Shown piece after piece: positions 6,321-20,670 of a stretch of 24,665 bases of DNA. Position 1 is the stretch's first letter. Each line of letters begins with the position of its first letter. The stretch is from a virus. Under the pieces are notes generated by a model. That model worked only from the letters and a program-made list of their open reading frames with translations, made no database searches and was not told where the DNA came from. The stretch lies in UHGV virus genome UHGV-1848590; one strand, written 5' to 3'. The translations under genes and the position numbers were made by a program.

Positions 6321-6435
6321 GGCACTTGTGTGAATCCCTTTTCGGAAGAGATTTTATTGAAAGTCACTTGTTGACTTTCTCGTGACAAGCAATTTTTTTA
6401 TTTTTTCGGGAGTAGGGGAGGAAGGTAAAATCCAA

Positions 6436-11184: not shown

Positions 11185-11226
11185 GTTGAATAAACCGGCC
11201 AACATAGCCGGTTGGAAGGAAGGGTA

Positions 11227-11619
11227 TTATTCTACGCTTTCGATAAGAAGACCATGTTCATAACATTTAAGCTCATCGCCTTCGTACAGGAATTGGTATC
11301 CAATACCACCATTTTCATGGACATTAGGGAATAACTCATAACTCACTGAAGAGCAAATCACACCAATGCAGCGATCAACGCCTTCTCGTTCTTCAGTGCT
11401 GAAAAAATCCTCTTCGGTAAGAACATGAGTACATTGCTCATCAGCATAGGTCGGAAATACATGCTCGATGCAATCCGGGTGTTTTAAACCAAGCTGATCG
11501 GCAAGCACGAAAGCATGACGGTATTGTTCAGATCCTGGCTTGCCAACAGTGATGTGCTCAATTTTGTAGATTGAAGTCGCTTTGTTGATAGTTTGCTTTA
11601 CTGTTACTTTATCAGACAT
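11227..11619 (-). CDS. hypothetical protein (130 aa; P1 upfA position)
   Basis: ORF with ATG start just right of the origin; no recognisable motif. Confidence 0.5.
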   Translation of the reverse strand: MSDKVTVKQTINKATSIYKIEHITVGKPGSEQYRHAFVLADQLGLKHPDCIEHVFPTYADEQCTHVLTEEDFFSTEEREGVDRCIGVICSSVSYELFPNVHENGGIGYQFLYEGDELKCYEHGLLIESVE

Positions 11620-11630
11620 AAAAATCCCTT

Positions 11631-11963
11631 TTAGTTACCGCTGATAGCGCGGTTGTAATCATTAACGTTGCGATTCTTCCTGTTAATCCCCATCAGCATC
11701 GTTTCTGTATCGAGGATATACGCTGGCAGATCATCAAAATATTCACTGCTAAACTCTGGCATCCTGCACATAAACGCACTTTTGGGGGCAGGGTGGTTAA
11801 CCTTTGTCGGCGTCGGCGTTAAATTCGCTGATCGACTCCCGGAGCAACCGCTGAGTGTCAGCAGGAATGCGCTGGCGAACATTACCCGCCGCAACCAGTT
11901 GTTTCTGAACTTCAGCTTTTCGTTCCATTTGCCTGTCAGCATATTTGGCTTGTTCTGATTCAT
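11631..11963 (-). CDS. lipoprotein (mlp-like; candidate o-spanin)
   Basis: Lipobox LTLSG-C in AFLLTLSGCSG; AGGAAG RBS before ATG 11963, alternative internal ATG at 11882; overlaps the 3' end of the upstream gene in another frame. Confidence 0.55.
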   Translation of the reverse strand: MNQNKPNMLTGKWNEKLKFRNNWLRRVMFASAFLLTLSGCSGSRSANLTPTPTKVNHPAPKSAFMCRMPEFSSEYFDDLPAYILDTETMLMGINRKNRNVNDYNRAISGN

Positions 11964-12219
11964 TTTTCACTTCCTGGCTGTGAAAATGTTGCTCTGCTTT
12001 GTTCATCGTCTCAATGGTCTGGTTAAGATCCATTATTGACTTATCACGTTCCTTAACAGCCTGATCAAGACTGCCAATTTTCTCCATGGCTTGCTTTAGC
12101 TGATGACGTTCCCATGCAAACCCAGCACCAACAAGTGCGCAAATCAGAACAAGAACACCAGTAGCAGCAAGTTTCTCCTTCAAAGACAAAGCTGTTTTTA
12201 ACGTAGAAAAGAATGACAT
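11797..12219 (-). CDS. N-terminally membrane-anchored coiled-coil protein (140 aa; ppfA-like; candidate i-spanin)
   Basis: Strong AGGAGG RBS before ATG 12219; hydrophobic helix LAATGVLVLICALVGAGFAW followed by a charged coiled-coil-like region. Confidence 0.55.
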   Translation of the reverse strand: MSFFSTLKTALSLKEKLAATGVLVLICALVGAGFAWERHQLKQAMEKIGSLDQAVKERDKSIMDLNQTIETMNKAEQHFHSQEVKNESEQAKYADRQMERKAEVQKQLVAAGNVRQRIPADTQRLLRESISEFNADADKG

Positions 12220-12258
12220 GTCTTCCTCCTGAAGAAAAATTATCAATGAAGTCCTTTG

Positions 12259-13047
12259 TTACCGTGCCGCTTTGTTTAATTCATCAAGAACAGAATCAGG
12301 AACCAAAGCGGCGACTGCGCTGGCTGTGCTGGCCTTATTTGCTGATGCTTCCGCAAGCGCGGTACCGATAGCATGGTTATAAGCAGTTATGGCTACGTTG
12401 GCGCTTTCATTCGCTCGTTCATACTGCTGTTGTAACGCAGTTGTGGGTGCTGTTGTCTGGTTGAAAACAACCCCAAACTGTTCAGTTGCTACTTTCAGAG
12501 ATTCAATTTGCTCTTCTGTTAGTGCTGGTGGGGGAGTGGCAGTGCCGCCGCCTGAACCAGAGCCTGACGAGCTTTCTGAGCCAGTGTTAAGGGCCTGGTT
12601 AATCTCCCCCATTGCAGCGACTAAACTTGATGTATTAAGCGCGTTAACAGCGTCCTCAAGCGATTTAGTAATATTCACATCACCAATGGCAATAGAGATC
12701 GGCAGTTCTGAAACTTCTCGCTCATTAGCACGGCAGTAAACATCCCAACCAATATCGAGTTGAAGCAGCATTGACAGATCTGCATAACCAGCCAACAGGT
12801 CCGCGTGCTTAGTTGCCAGTTCTCCAATGTTCGTTAAGCCGGTTGTGGTTGTTCTGATCGTTGAAACATAGCTGGTAATAGTGTCGGGATAGACAATTGT
12901 ATCCAGAATTAATCCGGTCAATTCTTCTGCAAGCAGTTTTGCTGTGTTAGCACTGTTTCGTGCCGATGTTATGGCACCAGGTGTTTTCATCCCACCGGCG
13001 GCGGCCAATTTTTTATATGCGGATAACTGGTAGTCTTTTTCCAGCAT
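12259..13047 (-). CDS. hypothetical protein (263 aa; Thr/Ser/Ala-rich with Gly-Ser linker)
   Basis: AGGAG RBS before ATG 13047 (ORF extends to 13104); no recognisable catalytic motif. Confidence 0.5.
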   Translation of the reverse strand: MLEKDYQLSAYKKLAAAGGMKTPGAITSARNSANTAKLLAEELTGLILDTIVYPDTITSYVSTIRTTTTGLTNIGELATKHADLLAGYADLSMLLQLDIGWDVYCRANEREVSELPISIAIGDVNITKSLEDAVNALNTSSLVAAMGEINQALNTGSESSSGSGSGGGTATPPPALTEEQIESLKVATEQFGVVFNQTTAPTTALQQQYERANESANVAITAYNHAIGTALAEASANKASTASAVAALVPDSVLDELNKAAR

Positions 13048-13055
13048 GATATCTC

Positions 13056-13340
13056 CTAACTTACCTGAACCAGGCCGTCTCCGGACGCTACGGTAGATCC
13101 GCATGAAACAGGGTCACCAACGCATACGATCCCTTTACCATTGACGGTAAACCATGCCCTGGTTGATATAGCTTGCCCACCGTGCGTACTGTTTCCATCG
13201 GTATGCTGTGCATATTGCTTACCATCAACTAACACTTCGACTCCGTTGACTTTAAGTAGTGGTTCACTCTCTACAGGAGGCCTGGATGGGAATCCTCCGT
13301 GCCCCGAACAAATGCTGTCTTTTGTTGCAATGCTTGCCAC
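13056..13340 (-). CDS. small Gly/Cys-rich protein, possibly PAAR-like (94 aa)
   Basis: GTG start; segments VLVDGKQYAQHTDGNSTHGGQAI and VNGKGIVCVGDPVSCGSTVASG resemble PAAR repeats by eye; first gene of the minus-strand accessory operon. Confidence 0.3.
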   Translation of the reverse strand: MASIATKDSICSGHGGFPSRPPVESEPLLKVNGVEVLVDGKQYAQHTDGNSTHGGQAISTRAWFTVNGKGIVCVGDPVSCGSTVASGDGLVQVS

Positions 13341-13421
13341 GCCATCACCAATTATTTGCTCTGATTTTCGTTATTTTAACTTAGGTTATTTGTGGTCTGT
13401 ATGGCGTTTACTTATCGCAAA

Positions 13422-13794: not shown

Positions 13795-14692
13795 GCACTG
13801 GAAAAACATTACTATTTATAAACTTTCTCGTGAGGCGGATCTGACCGACTTAGAAGATAAAAAGAAAATGATCCTTTTCACGCCATGCGGTAGTCAGGAT
13901 ATGGCCAAGTTCGGTTTTGTATCGCCATTTGGTGATAATTCTGAAGTTATCGCTATGCATGGAAATGGTTTTATCCTTGTTGAAGCAAAGCGCGAAACAA
14001 AAATTCTTCCCCCGCCGGTTATCCAGCGAGCTATTCAAGAAAAAATTGAAAAACTTGAGCAAGAACAAGCGCGTAAACTGAAGAAAACAGAGAAGGACTC
14101 CCTGAAAGACGAAGTTCTGCATTCTCTTCTGCCACGGGCTTTTTCAAAGTTTTCTGTTATCCAGGCGATCTACGACGGTTCAACTAAACGTATCTATATC
14201 AATGCCAGCGCGCGGCAGGCAGAGGATATGCTCGCGCTTATGCGTAAGTCTCTGGGTTCTCTTCCTGCTGTTCCCCTGAGTGTTGAAAATCCCATTGAAT
14301 TAACGCTGACCGACTGGGTACGTGATGGTAGTGCTCCACAGGGATTTCAAATGGGGGATGCGGCAGAACTTAAGGCAGTGCTTGAGGATGGCGGTATTGC
14401 CCGAGTGAAAAAGCAGGATTTGGGAAGCGATGAAATTTCCACACACCTGGAAGCTGGCAAGCTCGTCACTAAGTTGGCACTCGACTGGCAGAACCGCATT
14501 AAATTTACACTGGACCATAACTTCAGCCTTACCAGCGTCAAATTTGCGGATGAATTGCTTGAGCAGAACTCTGATATTGATAGTGAAGATGTTGCGCAGC
14601 GACTGGACGCAGATTTCTTCCTGTTGACCAGTGAAATTTCGTGCCTGGTTGATGCTCTGGTAAATGCCCTTGGCGGAGAGGCTAAGCAGTGA
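13787..14692 (+). CDS. hrdC: RdgC-family recombination-associated protein homolog (302 aa)
   Basis: Strong end-to-end similarity to E. coli RdgC as I recall it ([69 protein letters not shown]-terminal LGGEA); ATG 13787 with AAGGG RBS. Confidence 0.9.
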
Positions 14693-17600
14693 AAGAGCTG
14701 TGCTATGGATCTGTTTGCAGTGGAATTGAAGCCGCGAGTATTGCCTGGGAACCGTTGGGTATGCGTCCGGCGTGGTTTGCTGAAATCGAGCCTTTTCCAT
14801 CGGCCGTTCTTGCGCTCCGCTGGCCCCATGTTGCCAACCTTGGCGACATGAAAAAACTTGCCAAAAAAGTCTTGGCTGGGGAAATCGAATCCCCTGACGT
14901 GCTCGTCGGGGGAACACCATGTTTTACCGCGGGGCATATGGTTCTTTGTAAAAATGGCTATAAACCAATAGAAAATGTTTGCCCTGGTGATTACGTAGTC
15001 AGTCATCTCGGGCGGTTACAACAAGTAAAAAGAGTTGGTTCAAAAATAGCTAATACGGGGTTACTTAATGCCGTTGGGCAGCCTTTAGGTATAAGAACAA
15101 CCAATGACCATCCCTTCCTGGCTGTTCGGTGGAAAGCCCAAAACACCCGGAAAAATGGCACATATTTTAAGAGAGAGTTGTTGTCTGAACCGGAATGGCG
15201 AGCAGCATGTGATATGCCGGGATATCAATGGTGCGCTCTAACTAATTTCAATATTGCATTTCCAGATATTTGTTCTCGGTTCTTGTCTGAAGAACAGGCT
15301 ATGTATCTTGCGGGCGCTTATGTTGGCGATGGATATATTAGGAGATGGAGAGGTAAATCTAAGAAGGCGGTTGTTTTTGGCATAAATTGCCAGAAATTGA
15401 GAAAGTTTCATTGCCGCATACCAGAAAACATATTTTCCGTGGCAAGCGAAATCCGAGGGAGCATCAAAGTAACCTTGAATGATACGTGTTATGCCAATTG
15501 GCTTAATGAACATTTTGGCGAGTTAAGCCATGCTAAGCGTATCCCTGCATGGGTGATGTCGCATCCATTGCGTCATGTGTTTTTACAAGGCTATCTTGAT
15601 ACTGATGGGACACCAAGTGGTAAAGCGGGATTTAGAATTAATAGTGTTAGTTCTGCGCTTGCTTGGGGCGTTGCGGGGTTGTCACAGACTTGTGGTTATG
15701 TTTCTTCGGTCAGCTTTATTGAAGTTGAGCCCAAAAAAGTGATCGAGGATCGCGTGGTAAATCAACGGAATTATTATCAGGTAACAATCTGCCCGCAGAA
15801 ATTGTCACGTAAATCAAGATTGGCTCATGGAATGCTTTTACGAACAGTCAAAGAGTTTAAATCGGTAGGCCTAGATACTGTATACAACATAGAAGTCGAA
15901 GGTGATCATTCCTATATCCTCAATGGTGCGGTGGTCCATAACTGTCAGGCATTCAGTATCGCGGGATTACGTGGTGGGCTTGATGATGAGCGTGGCGCGC
16001 TAACTTTAAAGTATGTGGAGCTTGCAAATGCAATTGACGACAAACGGGCTGAGTCATTTCTCAAACCAGCCGTTATCGTCTGGGAAAATGTCCCAGGAGT
16101 CTTGTCATCGGCAGATAACGCCTTCGGATGTTTCCTTGCCGGATTGGCTGGAGAAGATGTGCCATTTGAACCAGGTGATCGACCTGAATCAGGAAAAAGC
16201 AACGCGTTCTGGCGGTGGGATGGCAAAACCGGTTGCCATGTTCCAAAGTGGCCGCAGTGTGGTTGTATTTATGGACCGCAGCGAAAAGTGGCCTGGAGAA
16301 TCCTTGATGCCCAATACTTCGGAGTGGCACAACGACGCCGACGCGTGTTTGTTGTCGCAAGTGCTCGAACAGATCTCGATCCCGCAACGGTACTTTTTGA
16401 GTTCGAAGGCGTGCGCCGGAATATTGCGCCGAGCAGAGGCGAGGGGAAGGAAACTACCAGATATACTTCAAACATCGCTATCAGAACTTGCGATGATACA
16501 AACATAATTGCCATGGCACATGGGCAAGGAGGGGCTGAGATAAAAACCGATAATTCGGCACCAACTTTGACATGTAACCATGAAGCACCAATTGTATTGC
16601 TCGGCGACGGTAGAATGCGCCGTCTTACCCCTGTCGAATGTGAAAGGCTGCAAGGTTTTCCTGATTGGCATACGTTGATCCCTACGGAAAAGCGTAAAAA
16701 AGTTAATTCAGATGAACTGGCATATCTGCACAATCACTATCCAGATTTAAGCGAAGAAGAGGCCGCAATGCTTGCAGCTGACGGACCGCGTTACAAAGCG
16801 ATCGGCAATAGTATGGCAATACCAGTAATGCGCTGGATTGGCGATCGGATTACTAAGGCCGTATGTCGGCAGAAAGAAGGAAGTGAAACAAAAGAGCGAA
16901 AAGTTAAACCAGCGGCAGAATTCGAACGGTCCATATTCAAATGGGCTGGTGGAAAATTTGGTGTTCTGGAACAAATCTTTCGCTATTTGCCAGAAGGGAA
17001 GCGCCTGATTGAACCTTTCGTTGGTGGCGGAGCTGTCTTCATGAATGCCGGATACCAGGAAAATCTGCTAAATGATGTGAATGCTGACCTGATTAACTTT
17101 TACAAGACTCTGCAACGCGAGGCGCATTCACTTATCACTCTGGCACATCGTTTCTTCCAGGACTACAACACACAGGAAGGATACCTGGCAGTACGGAATG
17201 CGTTTAACAAACAAGTCTATGATGATTTACATCGCGCAGCGGCGTTTTTGTTCCTGAACCGACATTGTTTTAACGGATTGACGCGTTACAACCAGGCCGG
17301 TGAGTTCAATGTCGGTTATGGGAAGTATAAAACTCCGTATTTCCCATTACAGGAGATGGAAGCCTTCCTCGGTGCGGAAGGGCGGTCTGAGTTTGTATGC
17401 GGTGATTTTGCAGCGGTGATTGAAGCTGCCGGAGAAGGAGATGTCATCTTTTGCGATCCGCCGTATGAACCGCTTCCAAATACAGAGGGATTCACGAACT
17501 ATTCCGGTCATGACTTTAAGTTTGAAGAGCAAAAACGCCTGGTGTCTCTGTTGACGGATGCTCATCGTCGAGGTGCAAAGGTTCTCATTACTAACAGTGG

Positions 17601-17730
17601 CGCGCCAAACATCAGAGAGCTTTATCATGACAGTGGCTTCAGAGTGGAACCTCTTTTTGCCAGACGTTCTGTGTCTTGTAAGGGGGACACTCGAGGTGTA
17701 GCTCATGACGTTTTGGGTATATTGCTCTAA
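14689..17730 (+). CDS. dmt: bifunctional DNA methyltransferase Dmt (N-terminal C5-cytosine MTase, C-terminal Dam-like N6-adenine MTase) interrupted by an intein; 1013 aa precursor
   Basis: C5-MTase motifs I (CSGIEAAS), IV ([12 protein letters not shown], split), VI (VWENVPG), VIII (QRRRRVFVV), X (GNSMAIPV); Dam domain from ~residue 745 (FKWAGGKF...FCDPPYEP); GTG start overlaps the rdgC stop. Confidence 0.9.
14920..15942 (+). mobile_element. intein with LAGLIDADG homing endonuclease (341 aa, residues 78-418 of Dmt)
   Basis: Block [21 protein letters not shown], block [17 protein letters not shown] motifs [11 protein letters not shown] and [11 protein letters not shown], blocks [23 protein letters not shown] followed by +1 Cys; flanks rejoin as [12 protein letters not shown]. 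Confidence 0.85.
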
Positions 17731-17749: not shown

Positions 17750-17937
17750 TCACCTCAATGAATCGTGATTTATAGAGCGATTTAGCTGTTAGCCGCGACA
17801 GGCGCGGCGGTAAGCATGGCTGGGCCTAGTCCTCCCAGACAAACCACCGAGTTGCCAGGTTGACCATGCGCCTAAGTGGCAACGCCGAAGTGCGTTACGA
17901 GCGTCCAGTTTGCCCATCTTCGGGTGGGCGTTTTTTT
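17750..17937 (+). ncRNA. candidate small RNA or terminated leader (~190 nt)
   Basis: Between the operator-overlapped promoter and a strong terminator; only trivial ORFs; several local hairpins (gccgcg/cgcggc, ctggg/cccag, ttgcca/tggcaa). Confidence 0.3.
17912..17937 (+). terminator. rho-independent terminator
   Basis: 7 bp stem gcccatc/ggtgggc with UUCG tetraloop, then G and a T7 run. Confidence 0.7.
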
Positions 17938-18402
17938 CAGGGTTTTCGTCATGGTTAGCGACTTTGCGGCGGTTTAGAAACTGACCATTAAAGTAAATGC
18001 AAACGATGATCTGATGATGGTAGCGGCCTAAGAAGCCAGATGCCATGGGGTATGAGTCGTCCCCCGTCAAAAAATCGACCGCAGAGTGTCCCCGTCTGTG
18101 TATTAGGGAACGGGGAGGCACAACAGGTAAGGGCGCTGGTGTGATTAACCAGATGAACGAGAAGGGGCCATCTGTTGGTCAGCGTCCTTTCCTGTTGCGT
18201 TTTCTTTTCAGCGTAACAGCGGTGCTTAACAGCACTTTGGGTACAGTTCCACGAATTTACGGGTATATCCCGTCATGCTGAAGGCGCTAATCACGCTGGA
18301 AGCCAGGGTTATGCATCCCCTGTTACCGAATTGCAGCCAGGGCGCGGTGCGCCGAAAAGCATACGGAGGTGGAAGCCCTCGCCGGAGACGTACCCGGCAA
18401 GT

Positions 18403-18477
18403 GATGGTGTAGCTCAGCGGTAGAGCAGTTGGCTGTTAACCAACTGGTCGGTAGTTCGAATCCACCCACCATCGCCA
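18403..18477 (+). tRNA. tRNA-Asn (anticodon GTT)
   Basis: Manual cloverleaf: acceptor gatggtg/caccatc, D-arm gctc...gagc, anticodon arm gttgg-ctGTTaa-ccaac, TTCGAAT T-loop, encoded CCA. Confidence 0.85.
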
Positions 18478-18482
18478 CTTTA

Positions 18483-18569
18483 GGGGAGTTAGTCCGTAGG
18501 GGTAGCGGGGTAGACTGTAAATCTACTGTCATTGCGACTCGGGTGGTTCGACTCCATCACTCCCCACCA
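18483..18569 (+). tRNA. tRNA-like element, Tyr(GTA)-like class II, noncanonical acceptor/D-arm junction (possible pseudo-tRNA)
   Basis: Acceptor ggggagt/actcccc + A + CCA, anticodon arm gtaga-ctGTAaa-tctac, long variable arm, TTCGACT T-loop; acceptor-to-D-stem linker is irregular. Confidence 0.4.
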
Positions 18570-18573
18570 CATT

Positions 18574-18649
18574 GCCGATTTAGCTCAGTTGGTAGAGCAG
18601 TCGCTTTGTAAGCGAATGGTCAGCGGTTCGATCCCGTTAATCGGCACCA
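18574..18649 (+). tRNA. tRNA-Thr (anticodon TGT)
   Basis: Acceptor gccgatt/aatcggc, D-arm gctc-agttggta-gagc, anticodon loop ttTGTaa, TTCGATC T-loop, encoded CCA. Confidence 0.85.
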
Positions 18650-20594: not shown

Positions 20595-20670
20595 GGCCCT
20601 TTAGCTCAGTGGTTAGAGCTGGCGACTCATAATCGCACGGTCACCGGTTCAAGTCCGGTAGGGGCCACCA
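20595..20670 (+). tRNA. tRNA-Ile2 (anticodon CAT, lysidine type)
   Basis: Near-identical in layout to E. coli ileX as I recall it: acceptor ggccctt/aggggcc, anticodon arm ggcga-ctCATaa-tcgc, TTCAAGT T-loop, encoded CCA. Confidence 0.85.

Follow-up and report, generated by a model that had tools for sequence, protein, structure and literature searches.

Two-component spanins are a class defined by architecture (Summer 2007, Kongari 2018). The prototype of overlapped spanin genes is the LysB/LysC pair of phage P2, whose o-spanin is encoded in the +1 frame, and the Rz/Rz1 pair of phage lambda represents the arrangement in which the o-spanin gene is wholly embedded in that of its partner. The spanin genes closest to those described here belong to P1 and P7. 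P1 gp064/gp063 and P7 Upf62.7/62.4 were catalogued as an overlapped two-component spanin, family 'P1' (Kongari et al. 2018, Table S1), and P1 mlp carries the RefSeq label 'Rz-like spanin'. Bednarek et al. (2022), who credit the P1 spanin listing to Summer 2007, identified ppfA/mlp, which form an unlinked operon, as the spanin genes of P1, an assignment made from predicted features and not verified experimentally; the lysis genes of P1 are dispersed in general (PMC9025707). We searched the literature from 2019 to 2026 for experimental work on the P1 spanin and found none.

In this study, we analyzed a 24,665-nucleotide stretch of the virus genome UHGV-1848590 (hereafter the window), the DNA of which is 97-99.9% identical to P1, P7, SJ46 and Ro157c2YLVW. 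We establish the gene anatomy and membrane-targeting signals of its ppfA/mlp pair, together with the conservation, the spanin-family homology and a conserved late-promoter motif of the locus. Both genes lie on the minus strand within positions 11631-12219, exactly the interval given for an Rz/Rz1-type pair in an earlier note on this DNA, which had left the strand unstated. A total of three residue changes separate the pair from P1 gp064/gp063. Compared with the sequences in Kongari Table S1, PpfA is identical to its P1 counterpart at 139/140 residues (99.3%; sole change I45M), and Mlp at 108/110 residues (changes S7N and V32A). Identity of the pair to P1-type copies in tblastn is 99.3-100%, and this near-identity over the full length places it in SpaninDB family 'P1'. 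The P1 and P7 pairs have the same ribosome-binding sites, 167-nt overlap, +1 frame, lipobox and flanking upfB and upfA genes as found here. Outside the pair, the window departs from reference P1 in places, for example in a dmt intein and an additional tRNA-Tyr; within the pair, there is no difference of substance. We therefore assign the locus, with high probability, to ppfA/mlp of a P1-like phage-plasmid, the pair being a predicted two-component spanin with overlapped genes. The spanin reading of the pair is correct and already known, having stood in a published spanin table since 2018.

Architecture of the overlapping genes

The features of the pair are as follows:

11631..11963, minus strand: mlp, 110-aa predicted lipoprotein precursor with a 71-aa mature form, predicted o-spanin
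11797..12219, minus strand: ppfA, 140 aa, predicted i-spanin with a short cytoplasmic N-terminus, one membrane helix and a helical periplasmic domain
11797..11963, minus strand: dual-coding overlap of 167 nt, covering PpfA residues 86-140 and Mlp residues 1-55
11844..11855, minus strand: mlp lipobox codons L-S-G-C, Mlp residues 37-40, with predicted acylation at Cys40
11970..11975, minus strand: mlp ribosome-binding site AGGAAG, inside the invariant PpfA codons Q82-E83-V84
12112..12171, minus strand: PpfA membrane-helix codons, approximately residues 17-36, which hold the only Cys of PpfA (C27)
12225..12230, minus strand: ppfA ribosome-binding site AGGAGG, 5 nt before the ATG, also given in Kongari Table S1

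The earlier note had described a 140-aa protein with one N-terminal membrane helix and a charged region, followed by a lipoprotein gene that has the lipobox LTLSGC and begins inside the 3' end of the first gene in a different frame. Both descriptions were borne out, as was its assignment of the pair to the overlapped i-spanin/o-spanin architecture, a prediction shared by Kongari Table S1 and the RefSeq label and backed by homology to P2 LysB/LysC. Its proposed positional match to P1 ppfA/mlp likewise held, the genes being near-identical and flanked by the same upfB and upfA.

The ppfA frame extends from an ATG at 12219 to a stop codon at 11797-11799. The 19-residue Kyte-Doolittle hydropathy of PpfA has its maximum of 2.35 at residues 17-35, with no second hydrophobic segment, and the helix modelled by AlphaFold2 spans this segment, giving the single N-terminal membrane helix of a type II i-spanin. 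Kongari Table S1 assigns 36 residues to the N-terminal part of PpfA and remarks 'one Cys in TMD'. The remaining periplasmic part comprises 104 residues, of which 36% are charged and none is Cys. The AlphaFold2 model, which has a modest pLDDT of 67.5, is almost all helix (residues 13-110, a break at 111-119, and 120-137) and resembles an i-spanin periplasmic domain, namely two helical segments joined by a linker. A heptad pattern was also found at residues 46-73 (28 residues), where seven of the eight a/d positions are hydrophobic, a value equalled by 52 of 2000 shuffled sequences.

The mlp frame, +1 relative to ppfA, starts with an ATG at 11963 and stops at 11631-11633, and the part of Mlp encoded within the overlap consists of the signal peptide and the first 16 mature residues. 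An overlapping +1-frame arrangement, as used to recognize spanin genes, is thus present with an overlap of 167 nt in the window, and the arrangement is kept in all lineages examined. The lipobox of Mlp, LTLSG/C, is followed by Ser at position +2; o-spanins are recognized as small lipoproteins that combine a signal-peptidase-II signal and a lipobox Cys with a +2 residue other than Asp, as required for sorting to the outer membrane. The mature protein contains six Pro and one further Cys, C66, which is kept in all lineages within the motif AFMC-x-MP and provides the pair with at least one periplasmic Cys that could form an intermolecular disulfide, as in 507 of the 528 catalogued spanin pairs. 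The signal peptide read from the conserved ATG is 39 aa long, which is atypical, and SpaninDB places the LipoP cleavage of P1 Mlp at residue 39, gives no PROSITE match and remarks 'Too long signal sequence'.

A shorter signal peptide of canonical length (16 aa), starting from a TTG at 11894, was considered and rejected, there being no ribosome-binding site at this position in any lineage. The TTG position aligns with Met1 of P2 LysC, and a start codon is found there in five of the seven lineages and is absent in JK004. The distal ATG is preceded by AGGAGG or AGGAAG at a distance of 6 or 7 nt in all seven lineages. Since the distal ATG and its ribosome-binding site are universal, the 110-aa form of Mlp was kept; translation may nevertheless begin at both ATG 11963 and TTG 11894.

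Conservation and genomic context of the pair

Relatives of PpfA, in particular any lying in canonical lysis cassettes, were sought in a word index of 5.8 billion proteins, by tblastn of phage genomes, by IMG/VR scans, by a HMMER profile search of 1.84 billion representatives and by two GTDB genome scans. Both ORFs were intact in 80 of 82 P1-like loci (~98%), and mlp considered alone in 81 of 82. Moreover, both are intact in seven lineages, down to 31% identity in PpfA, and mature Mlp is 60-75% identical where PpfA is only about 31-65% identical. The lipobox is kept in the seven lineages, with the variants LSAC, LNGC and LNAC in other lineages and LILSGC, in which Thr just upstream of LSGC is replaced by Ile, in three P1-like loci. 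Judging from these sequence comparisons, both frames appear to be under purifying selection. Of six divergent loci with inspected gene calls, five had either the last 44-52 codons of mlp called or no mlp at all. The gene is routinely missed or truncated by gene callers, which makes the ppfA/mlp overlap useful for testing annotation methods.

The PpfA family is narrow, with 34 matches at E values up to 1e-3; for one relative (P0085, 29% identity), the corresponding DNA was not found. All full-length PpfA relatives with readable context share the gene order upfC-upfB-ppfA-mlp and are located in P1-like elements, none of them in a canonical lysis cassette. Because the family is narrow and has a single context, genomic context gives no independent evidence of function.

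Relationship to the spanins of P2 and lambda

In BLASTP, 68 aa of Mlp align with P2 LysC at 37% identity (E 5e-8), and the alignment takes in the lipobox and a conserved Cys-x-Met-Pro motif. Mlp matches phrog_30284 (E 2e-77) as well as phrog_456, the P2 LysC family (E 4e-5); P2 LysC matches phrog_456 at 1.7e-31 and, reciprocally, the Mlp family phrog_30284 at 5e-4. PpfA matches phrog_89, 'Rz-like spanin', at E 1.2e-25, the match covering almost all of the profile, and the same family is matched by P2 LysB at 5.8e-61, although the PpfA match may be partly circular if P1 PpfA itself belongs to phrog_89. The pair is thereby grouped by remote homology with LysB (phrog_89) and LysC (phrog_456). A direct profile-profile comparison of PpfA and LysB was weak (probability 39%, E 3e-4, 43 columns), covering only the membrane helix and the first periplasmic helix; hence, the homology of the i-spanin rests on the PHROG grouping and on its o-spanin partner. 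In NCBIfam, nothing scored above the cut-offs for either protein, the sole sub-threshold match being that of PpfA to the phage_LysB equivalog TIGR03495 (19 bits, E 0.0013, below the 92.75-bit cut-off). In Pfam, PpfA had nothing significant (best E 0.0028, far below family cut-offs), and Mlp had no match at E values up to 0.1.

The two pairs are similar in size (141 and 96 aa for P2 LysB/LysC, 140 and 110 aa for PpfA/Mlp) and share both the manner of gene overlap and the +1 frame of the o-spanin. They differ in the signal peptide, which is 20 aa in LysC and 39 aa in Mlp, and in periplasmic Cys residues, of which LysB has two and LysC four, whereas PpfA has none and Mlp one. In addition, the holin and endolysin genes of P2 are followed in its lysis cassette by lysB/lysC, a linkage that ppfA/mlp lack.

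No sequence relationship to lambda Rz/Rz1 was detected in the PHROG and Pfam searches, and neither PpfA nor Mlp matched phrog_13 or phrog_3198, the families of P22/lambda-type Rz and Rz1. The predicted topology and mechanism are nevertheless the same, with a type II helical inner-membrane protein and a small Pro-containing outer-membrane lipoprotein. Rz1 and Mlp both use the +1 frame, and each pair has one or more periplasmic Cys through which a homodimer could form. In contrast to the embedded Rz1, mlp runs 166 nt beyond ppfA, and whereas one late transcript carries S, R and then Rz/Rz1, ppfA/mlp stand apart from the other lysis genes.

Expression, lysis genes and proposed function

The neighborhood of the pair contains the following features:

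11199..11215, minus strand: terminator-like hairpin with a T-run after upfA, from a consensus scan that found no excess of sites over shuffled sequence
11227..11619, minus strand: upfA, 130 aa, phrog_1453, no function assigned, 11 nt downstream of mlp
12239..12257, minus strand: degenerate Lpa-type motif of P1 late promoters, AAAGGACTT-N4-GATAAT, lying 19 nt before the ATG of ppfA
12259..13104, minus strand: upfB, immediately upstream of ppfA, virion baseplate 'tripod' protein (PMC12810830)
13056..13340, minus strand: upfC, which opens the cluster and encodes a PAAR/gp5.4-like tail spike tip protein (PMC9024508, PMC12810830)

The late-promoter motif was scored with a weight matrix trained on 10 annotated P1 late promoters, nine of which score 18.7-22 and one, LPpmgL, 11.4. 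The motif in the window scores 10.1 and is in the same degenerate state in P1 itself, where it is unannotated in the record NC_005856. Its positional homologues in six other lineages score 18.9, 18.1, 14.6, 11.5, 9.9 and 7.6; two lineages thus reach 18-19 bits, the strength of LPlyz and LPdar. The spacer sequence is unrelated between lineages, and the position of the motif is conserved in all seven of them. Only two non-training sites in 190 kb of P1 score 14 or more. From this conservation, we infer that the motif is a putative late promoter of ppfA-mlp, and possibly of upfA, which is probably co-transcribed with mlp (upfA is missing from lineage L093). The upstream genes upfC and upfB encode virion proteins, that is, late functions, which is consistent with late expression of the pair; the match of UpfC to the NCBIfam PAAR domain (E 4.5e-9) is below the family cut-off.

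Spanin genes usually, though not obligatorily, lie beside the holin-endolysin cassette, and ppfA/mlp do not. The earlier note had remarked on the distance of the pair from any obvious lysis cassette. There is indeed none in the window, and in P1, ppfA/mlp occupy 63.4-63.9 kb, far from lyz (~20.3-20.9 kb) and lydA/lydB (~30.4-31.2 kb). The conserved late-promoter motif is in keeping with the timing of lysis even at this distance from lyz and lydAB. As grounds for refuting its proposal, the earlier note had named a bona fide spanin pair elsewhere, in the lysis cassette, together with no lysis phenotype for these genes; no such further pair was found near lyz-lydD-lydE or lydC-lydA-lydB. A heuristic six-frame lipobox scan of the 94.8 kb of P1 gave only three candidates, mlp and two antisense to pmgM/pmgN, and no other credible lipoprotein or spanin candidate was found in P1 by annotation and scanning, including the lyz-lydD-lydE and lydC-lydA-lydB regions.

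By analogy with lambda Rz/Rz1 and P2 LysB/LysC, we infer the expression timing, localization, complex formation and membrane fusion proposed for the pair. Late in infection, Lpa would turn on the promoter just upstream of ppfA. PpfA would enter the inner membrane via its N-terminal helix, with ~100 helical residues reaching into the periplasm, while Mlp would be exported, acylated at Cys40 and cleaved by signal peptidase II, with the Ser at +2 directing it to the outer membrane. PpfA and Mlp would pass through the peptidoglycan mesh and bind each other across the periplasm by their C-terminal parts, and Mlp may dimerize through its single periplasmic Cys66. Once Lyz, released by holins, has destroyed the peptidoglycan, the PpfA-Mlp complexes would collapse and fuse the inner and outer membranes, thereby removing the last barrier to phage release.

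Several other explanations were weighed against this spanin function. In a CRISPRi knock-down study, plating efficiencies were 1.3 and 1.2 for ppfA and 0.24 and 0.19 for mlp; both genes were scored non-essential, with plaques still formed, and lambda Rz was scored essential in the same study. This result could suggest that ppfA/mlp are a decaying or redundant remnant and that P1 breaches the outer membrane by another route. Frameshifted PpfA::Mlp fusion alleles, in which PpfA is joined to the Mlp C-terminus, account for several percent of database copies, other recurrent frameshifts truncate PpfA, and the late-promoter motif is degenerate in P1 proper, all of which would fit decay. We nonetheless consider a remnant very unlikely: both frames are intact in nearly all of the P1-like loci and across divergent lineages, the conserved ATG, ribosome-binding site, lipobox and AFMC-x-MP motif are incompatible with neutral decay, and P1 offered no alternative candidate for outer-membrane disruption. 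Lambda spanin mutants likewise look dispensable and lyse under standard shaken conditions (PMC9025707), and the CRISPRi plaque result does not test spanin function.

The same dispensability for plaques, in an element that is mostly a plasmid prophage, could also point to Mlp as a surface lipoprotein made in the prophage state, with a part in lysogenic conversion or in superinfection exclusion comparable to that of lambda Bor, T5 Llp or phi80 Cor, and with PpfA as an unrelated membrane partner and no role in lysis. The pair adjoins the plasmid maintenance region oriR-repA-parAB, and two predicted sigma-70 promoters, P1ppfA and P2ppfA, are placed inside upfB in the P1 record; in our consensus scan, however, sigma-70 sites, like terminators, were no commoner than in shuffled sequence, and the conserved motif immediately before ppfA is of the kind found in late promoters that depend on Lpa. 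Mlp shows homology to LysC, the o-spanin of P2, rather than to Bor or Cor, and is always +1-coupled to a PpfA of i-spanin architecture, which makes such a prophage lipoprotein very unlikely. The invariant order upfC-upfB-ppfA-mlp (7/7 lineages) would suit a role for PpfA/Mlp in virion assembly or entry with UpfC and UpfB, as envelope assembly factors or penetration helpers, given that UpfC and UpfB form the membrane-piercing tail tip (PMC12810830) and that late promoters drive structural as well as lysis genes. Yet neither protein is among the ten listed baseplate proteins or the modelled head and connector proteins in the cryo-EM study (PMC12810830), and the virion-proteome paper is silent on ppfA, mlp and spanins (PMC9024508). 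With homology indicating LysB/LysC and ppfA having its own promoter-like element separate from upfC-upfB, such a role seems very improbable. Finally, the pair is locked to upfC-upfB, is dispensable, has a 39-aa signal peptide and lacks an i-spanin periplasmic cysteine, and for these reasons it might be something other than a plain lysis spanin, serving the envelope in an additional or altogether different way, such as in concert with the spike proteins or in superinfection exclusion; we regard this as very unlikely. A Lpa-dependent late promoter belonging to ppfA-mlp itself, unannotated in the P1 reference, would be a smaller novelty but a more probable one.

The discovery value of the pair itself is small, as it is already catalogued and labelled in RefSeq as a spanin. 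P1 is, on the other hand, a major genetic tool and a phage-plasmid carrier of resistance genes, and its spanin rests on prediction. If the spanin genes do have their own late promoter, this would explain how an unlinked pair stays timed with lysis, and the dispersed lysis genes of P1 would thus be co-timed.

Gene anatomy and setting of the ppfA/mlp pair

Judged from its sequence, the window is a P1-like phage-plasmid. It aligns over its whole length with P1 coordinates 48.2-73.7 kb, and its genes run in the order 23, parB, parA, repA/oriR, upfA, mlp, ppfA, upfB and upfC, after which transcription diverges into uhr, hrdC, dmt, tRNAs and ban. The 1.1 kb spanning ppfA and mlp is 97-99.9% identical to P1, P7, SJ46, RCS47 and vB_EcoM-Ro157c2YLVW. 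The earlier note had assigned 11631-12219 positionally to P1 ppfA/mlp, which agrees with these near-identical genes in the same P1-like order; its coordinates bracket the two overlapping genes exactly, and its description was accurate, leaving unstated only the strand, which is minus. The features of the pair are as follows.

12239-12257, minus strand: candidate ppfA late promoter, AAAGGACTT-catt-GATAAT, score 10.1 in the window and in P1
12219 (ATG) to 11797-11799 (stop), minus strand: ppfA, ORF of 140 aa
11963 (ATG) to 11631 (end), minus strand: mlp, 110 aa, +1 frame relative to ppfA

The ppfA ATG is preceded at 5 nt by an AGGAGG ribosome-binding site; no such site precedes the longer 149-aa ORF that begins at TTG 12246. 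PpfA, which differs from P1 gp064 only by I45M, has 16 residues before a single strongly hydrophobic segment (Kyte-Doolittle 19-residue maximum of 2.35, residues 17-35) and a C-terminal part of 104 residues, 36% charged and free of Cys. An AlphaFold2 model built from 11 homologues, of moderate confidence only (pLDDT 67.5), is all-helical (helix 13-110, break 111-119, helix 120-137), and a heptad pattern at residues 46-73 places hydrophobic residues at seven of eight a/d positions, a level equalled by 52 of 2000 shuffles. Hydropathy, composition and model thus bear out a 140-aa protein with one N-terminal membrane helix and a charged helical region.

The mlp start is located 167 nt ahead of the ppfA stop, and the ORF and this overlap uphold the claim of a lipoprotein gene beginning within the ppfA 3' end in another frame. 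The lipobox is LTLSG/C (Cys40, with Ser at +2), the signal peptide is of unusual length (39 aa), and the mature protein of 71 aa contains six Pro and, besides Cys40, a single Cys (C66). Mlp differs from P1 gp063 by S7N and V32A.

Several other features of the window were recorded. The dmt (DNA methyltransferase) ORF at 14689-17730 (plus strand) encodes 1013 aa versus 754 aa in reference P1, with Hint (residues 77-126) and LAGLIDADG endonuclease (298-361) Pfam domains inside the C5-methylase part; the sequence GGTP/CFTAGHMVL...AVVHN/CQAFSIAG marks the insert as an intein at the catalytic Pro-Cys motif. Four tRNA genes at 18403-18649 and 20595-20670 (plus strand) specify Asn, Tyr and Thr, with a fourth (anticodon CAT) that is probably of Ile2 type as in the P1 annotation; the tRNA-Tyr (18483-18569) is additional to reference P1, annotated with Asn, Thr and Ile only.

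Conservation and natural alleles

Both ORFs are intact in 80 of 82 P1-like loci, and mlp in 81. Seven lineages were compared (the window, Cronobacter phage JK004, an IMG/VR contig and four Salmonella/Klebsiella/Cronobacter types), in which PpfA identity ranges from 100% down to 31%. All seven keep the upfC-upfB-ppfA order and an overlapped +1-frame mlp of 109-110 aa. By region, identity is lowest in the n-region of the Mlp signal (26-37%) and highest in the mature Mlp domain (60-75%), with PpfA at 31-65%. All seven also have the distal mlp ATG with a ribosome-binding site (AGGAGG or AGGAAG) 6 or 7 nt 5' of it, which is encoded inside the invariant PpfA residues Q82-E83-V84-K85. A second candidate start (here TTG 11894), 16 codons 5' of the Cys and aligned to Met1 of the P2 o-spanin LysC, occurs in five lineages only and never with a ribosome-binding site; the comparison therefore favours the long signal peptide as the better-supported reading, while dual starts are possible.

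Recurrent natural frameshift alleles were also found in P1-like elements. In a 195-aa allele, PpfA residues 1-139 are joined to Mlp residues 55-110, a fusion for which the deletion of one G from AAAGGTTAA, at the ppfA stop, is the best explanation. The allele comprises seven protein clusters (P0003, P0010, P0017, P0019, P0028, P0039 and P0046) with about 78 sequences together, versus more than 1100 intact copies, and was confirmed on three assembled contigs (loci L089-L091). A 193-aa allele (P0041) fuses PpfA residues 1-85 to full-length Mlp.

Gene callers consistently overlooked the overlapped mlp in loci L002 (JK004, MZ188976), L092, L093, L094 and L095, calling only its last 44-52 codons or nothing, and the databases name most copies 'hypothetical protein'. 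The L093 lineage has no upfA between mlp and repA.

A candidate late promoter

A weight matrix was built from ten annotated P1 promoters dependent on the late-promoter activator Lpa; it is specific, with just two non-training sites scoring at least 14 bits in 190 kb of P1 sequence, both strands counted. In the 60 nt 5' of ppfA, each of the seven lineages has its best match at a shared position, where the -10 element stops 18-24 nt short of the ATG. Although the spacers have unrelated sequences, their 4-nt length is conserved, as are the nine-base -22 box and the -10 hexamer. Two lineages (18.9 and 18.1; AAGTGACTT-N4-GAGAAT) score on par with LPlyz and LPdar, and the others score 14.6, 11.5, 10.1, 9.9 and 7.6. 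The only promoters that NC_005856 annotates here are predicted sigma-70 ones within upfB; this element is missing from the record.

Upstream, ppfA is flanked by late virion genes: UpfC forms the tip of the tail spike, to which the tripod protein UpfB is anchored. The window contains neither a holin nor an endolysin gene, in line with the remoteness from a lysis cassette pointed out in the earlier note. In P1 the lysis genes are as a rule scattered in groups, each served by a separate late promoter (LPlyz, LPdar), so being far from lyz and lydAB does not count against a role in lysis.

Two further matches were seen. At 13351-13391 (minus strand), 32 nt 5' of the upfC start, a weak late-promoter-like motif with a score of 11.1 (AAATAACCT-aagt-TAAAAT) and a sigma-70-like site (TTAAAA-17-AATAAT) overlap; across the window and loci L002, L085 and L092-L095, the best match lies at 26-33 nt in six of seven lineages with scores of 8-13, pointing to an additional, weaker late promoter that would serve upfC-upfB. 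The sole strong Lpa-type match in the window, AAGTGACTTTCAATAAAAT at 6351-6369 (minus strand, score 22.0), is identical to P1 LP23, located 5' of the major capsid gene 23.

Relationship to known spanins and predicted function

The spanin identity of ppfA/mlp is already in the literature and databases, so the finding itself is of low interest. In Kongari et al. 2018 (PMC6139136, Table S1), P1 gp064/gp063 and P7 Upf62.7/Upf62.4 form the family 'P1' of overlapped two-component spanins. The table reports ribosome-binding sites identical to ours, an i-spanin periplasmic domain of 104 residues lacking Cys and a mature o-spanin of 71 residues containing a single Cys, and it remarks 'Too long signal sequence'. 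The mlp product is named 'Rz-like spanin' in RefSeq NC_005856, and several GenBank records term the pair Rz/Rz1. Bednarek et al. 2022 (PMC9025707) describe partially overlapping P1 spanin genes in an operon unlinked to the remaining lysis genes, assigned from predicted features with citation of Summer et al. 2007. The introduction of that paper labels ppfA the o-spanin and mlp the i-spanin; the membrane helix in PpfA and the lipobox in Mlp indicate the reverse.

Mlp shows 37% identity to LysC over 68 residues (E 5e-8, single comparison), the alignment taking in the lipobox region and a Cys-x-Met-Pro motif; it matches the LysC family phrog_456, and LysC reciprocally matches the Mlp family phrog_30284. 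PpfA matches phrog_89 over almost the full profile (1.2e-25), as does the P2 i-spanin LysB (5.8e-61). The i-spanin link is less firm than these values suggest, because P1 PpfA may itself be a phrog_89 member, PpfA scores 19 bits against the curated LysB model TIGR03495 (below the 92.75-bit cut-off), and the PpfA-LysB profile-profile comparison is weak (probability 39%, E 3e-4). The PpfA relatives P0077, P0085 and P0091, whose source was a metagenome/genome protein library and not named phage records, match several i-spanin PHROGs (1e-5 to 1e-7). Lambda Rz/Rz1 show no sequence-level relationship to PpfA/Mlp.

Regarding competing candidates, neither lyz-lydD-lydE nor lydC-lydA-lydB, the P1 lysis regions, was found to carry anything spanin-like. 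When the whole P1 genome was scanned heuristically for lipoboxes in six frames, mlp and two ORFs antisense to pmgM/pmgN were the only hits; the annotated lipoprotein plp failed the filter. In the window, the counterpart of the P1 plp (putative lipoprotein)/upl region contains no lipoprotein-like ORF, and no obvious plp counterpart lies at the expected place (17789-18121, minus strand) or in its neighbourhood; plp is perhaps missing or replaced.

Mlp could instead be an exclusion lipoprotein expressed by the prophage, the two proteins could be accessory to the spike proteins, or the pair could be a redundant remnant. Each of these agrees less well than a spanin does with the LysC homology, the conserved two-frame coupling and the late-promoter motif. 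In CRISPRi knock-downs of either gene, plaque formation stays intact, with plating efficiencies of 1.3 and 1.2 for ppfA and 0.24 and 0.19 for mlp; it typically takes unshaken cultures or a supplement of divalent cations for spanin defects to become visible (PMC9025707).

The observation of the pair is confirmed. Its gene layout and targeting signals, its conservation and homology, and the promoter motif are all shown by the analysis, and the overlapped i-spanin/o-spanin reading proposed earlier is supported by the LysC homology, the two-frame coupling and the PMC6139136 listing. What the sequence comparisons add to the known picture is small: evidence for the mlp start codon and ribosome-binding site, and a conserved late-promoter motif 5' of ppfA for which the reference record has no annotation. 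The standard two-component mechanism is the best-supported account of the timing, localisation, complex formation and fusion that are predicted for PpfA/Mlp by analogy with Rz/Rz1. PpfA would be anchored in the inner membrane, and Mlp would be acylated and sent to the outer membrane; it may dimerise through Cys66, the sole periplasmic Cys of the pair. Their C-terminal regions would bind across the periplasm, and once the Lyz endolysin had removed the peptidoglycan, the complexes would collapse and fuse both membranes.
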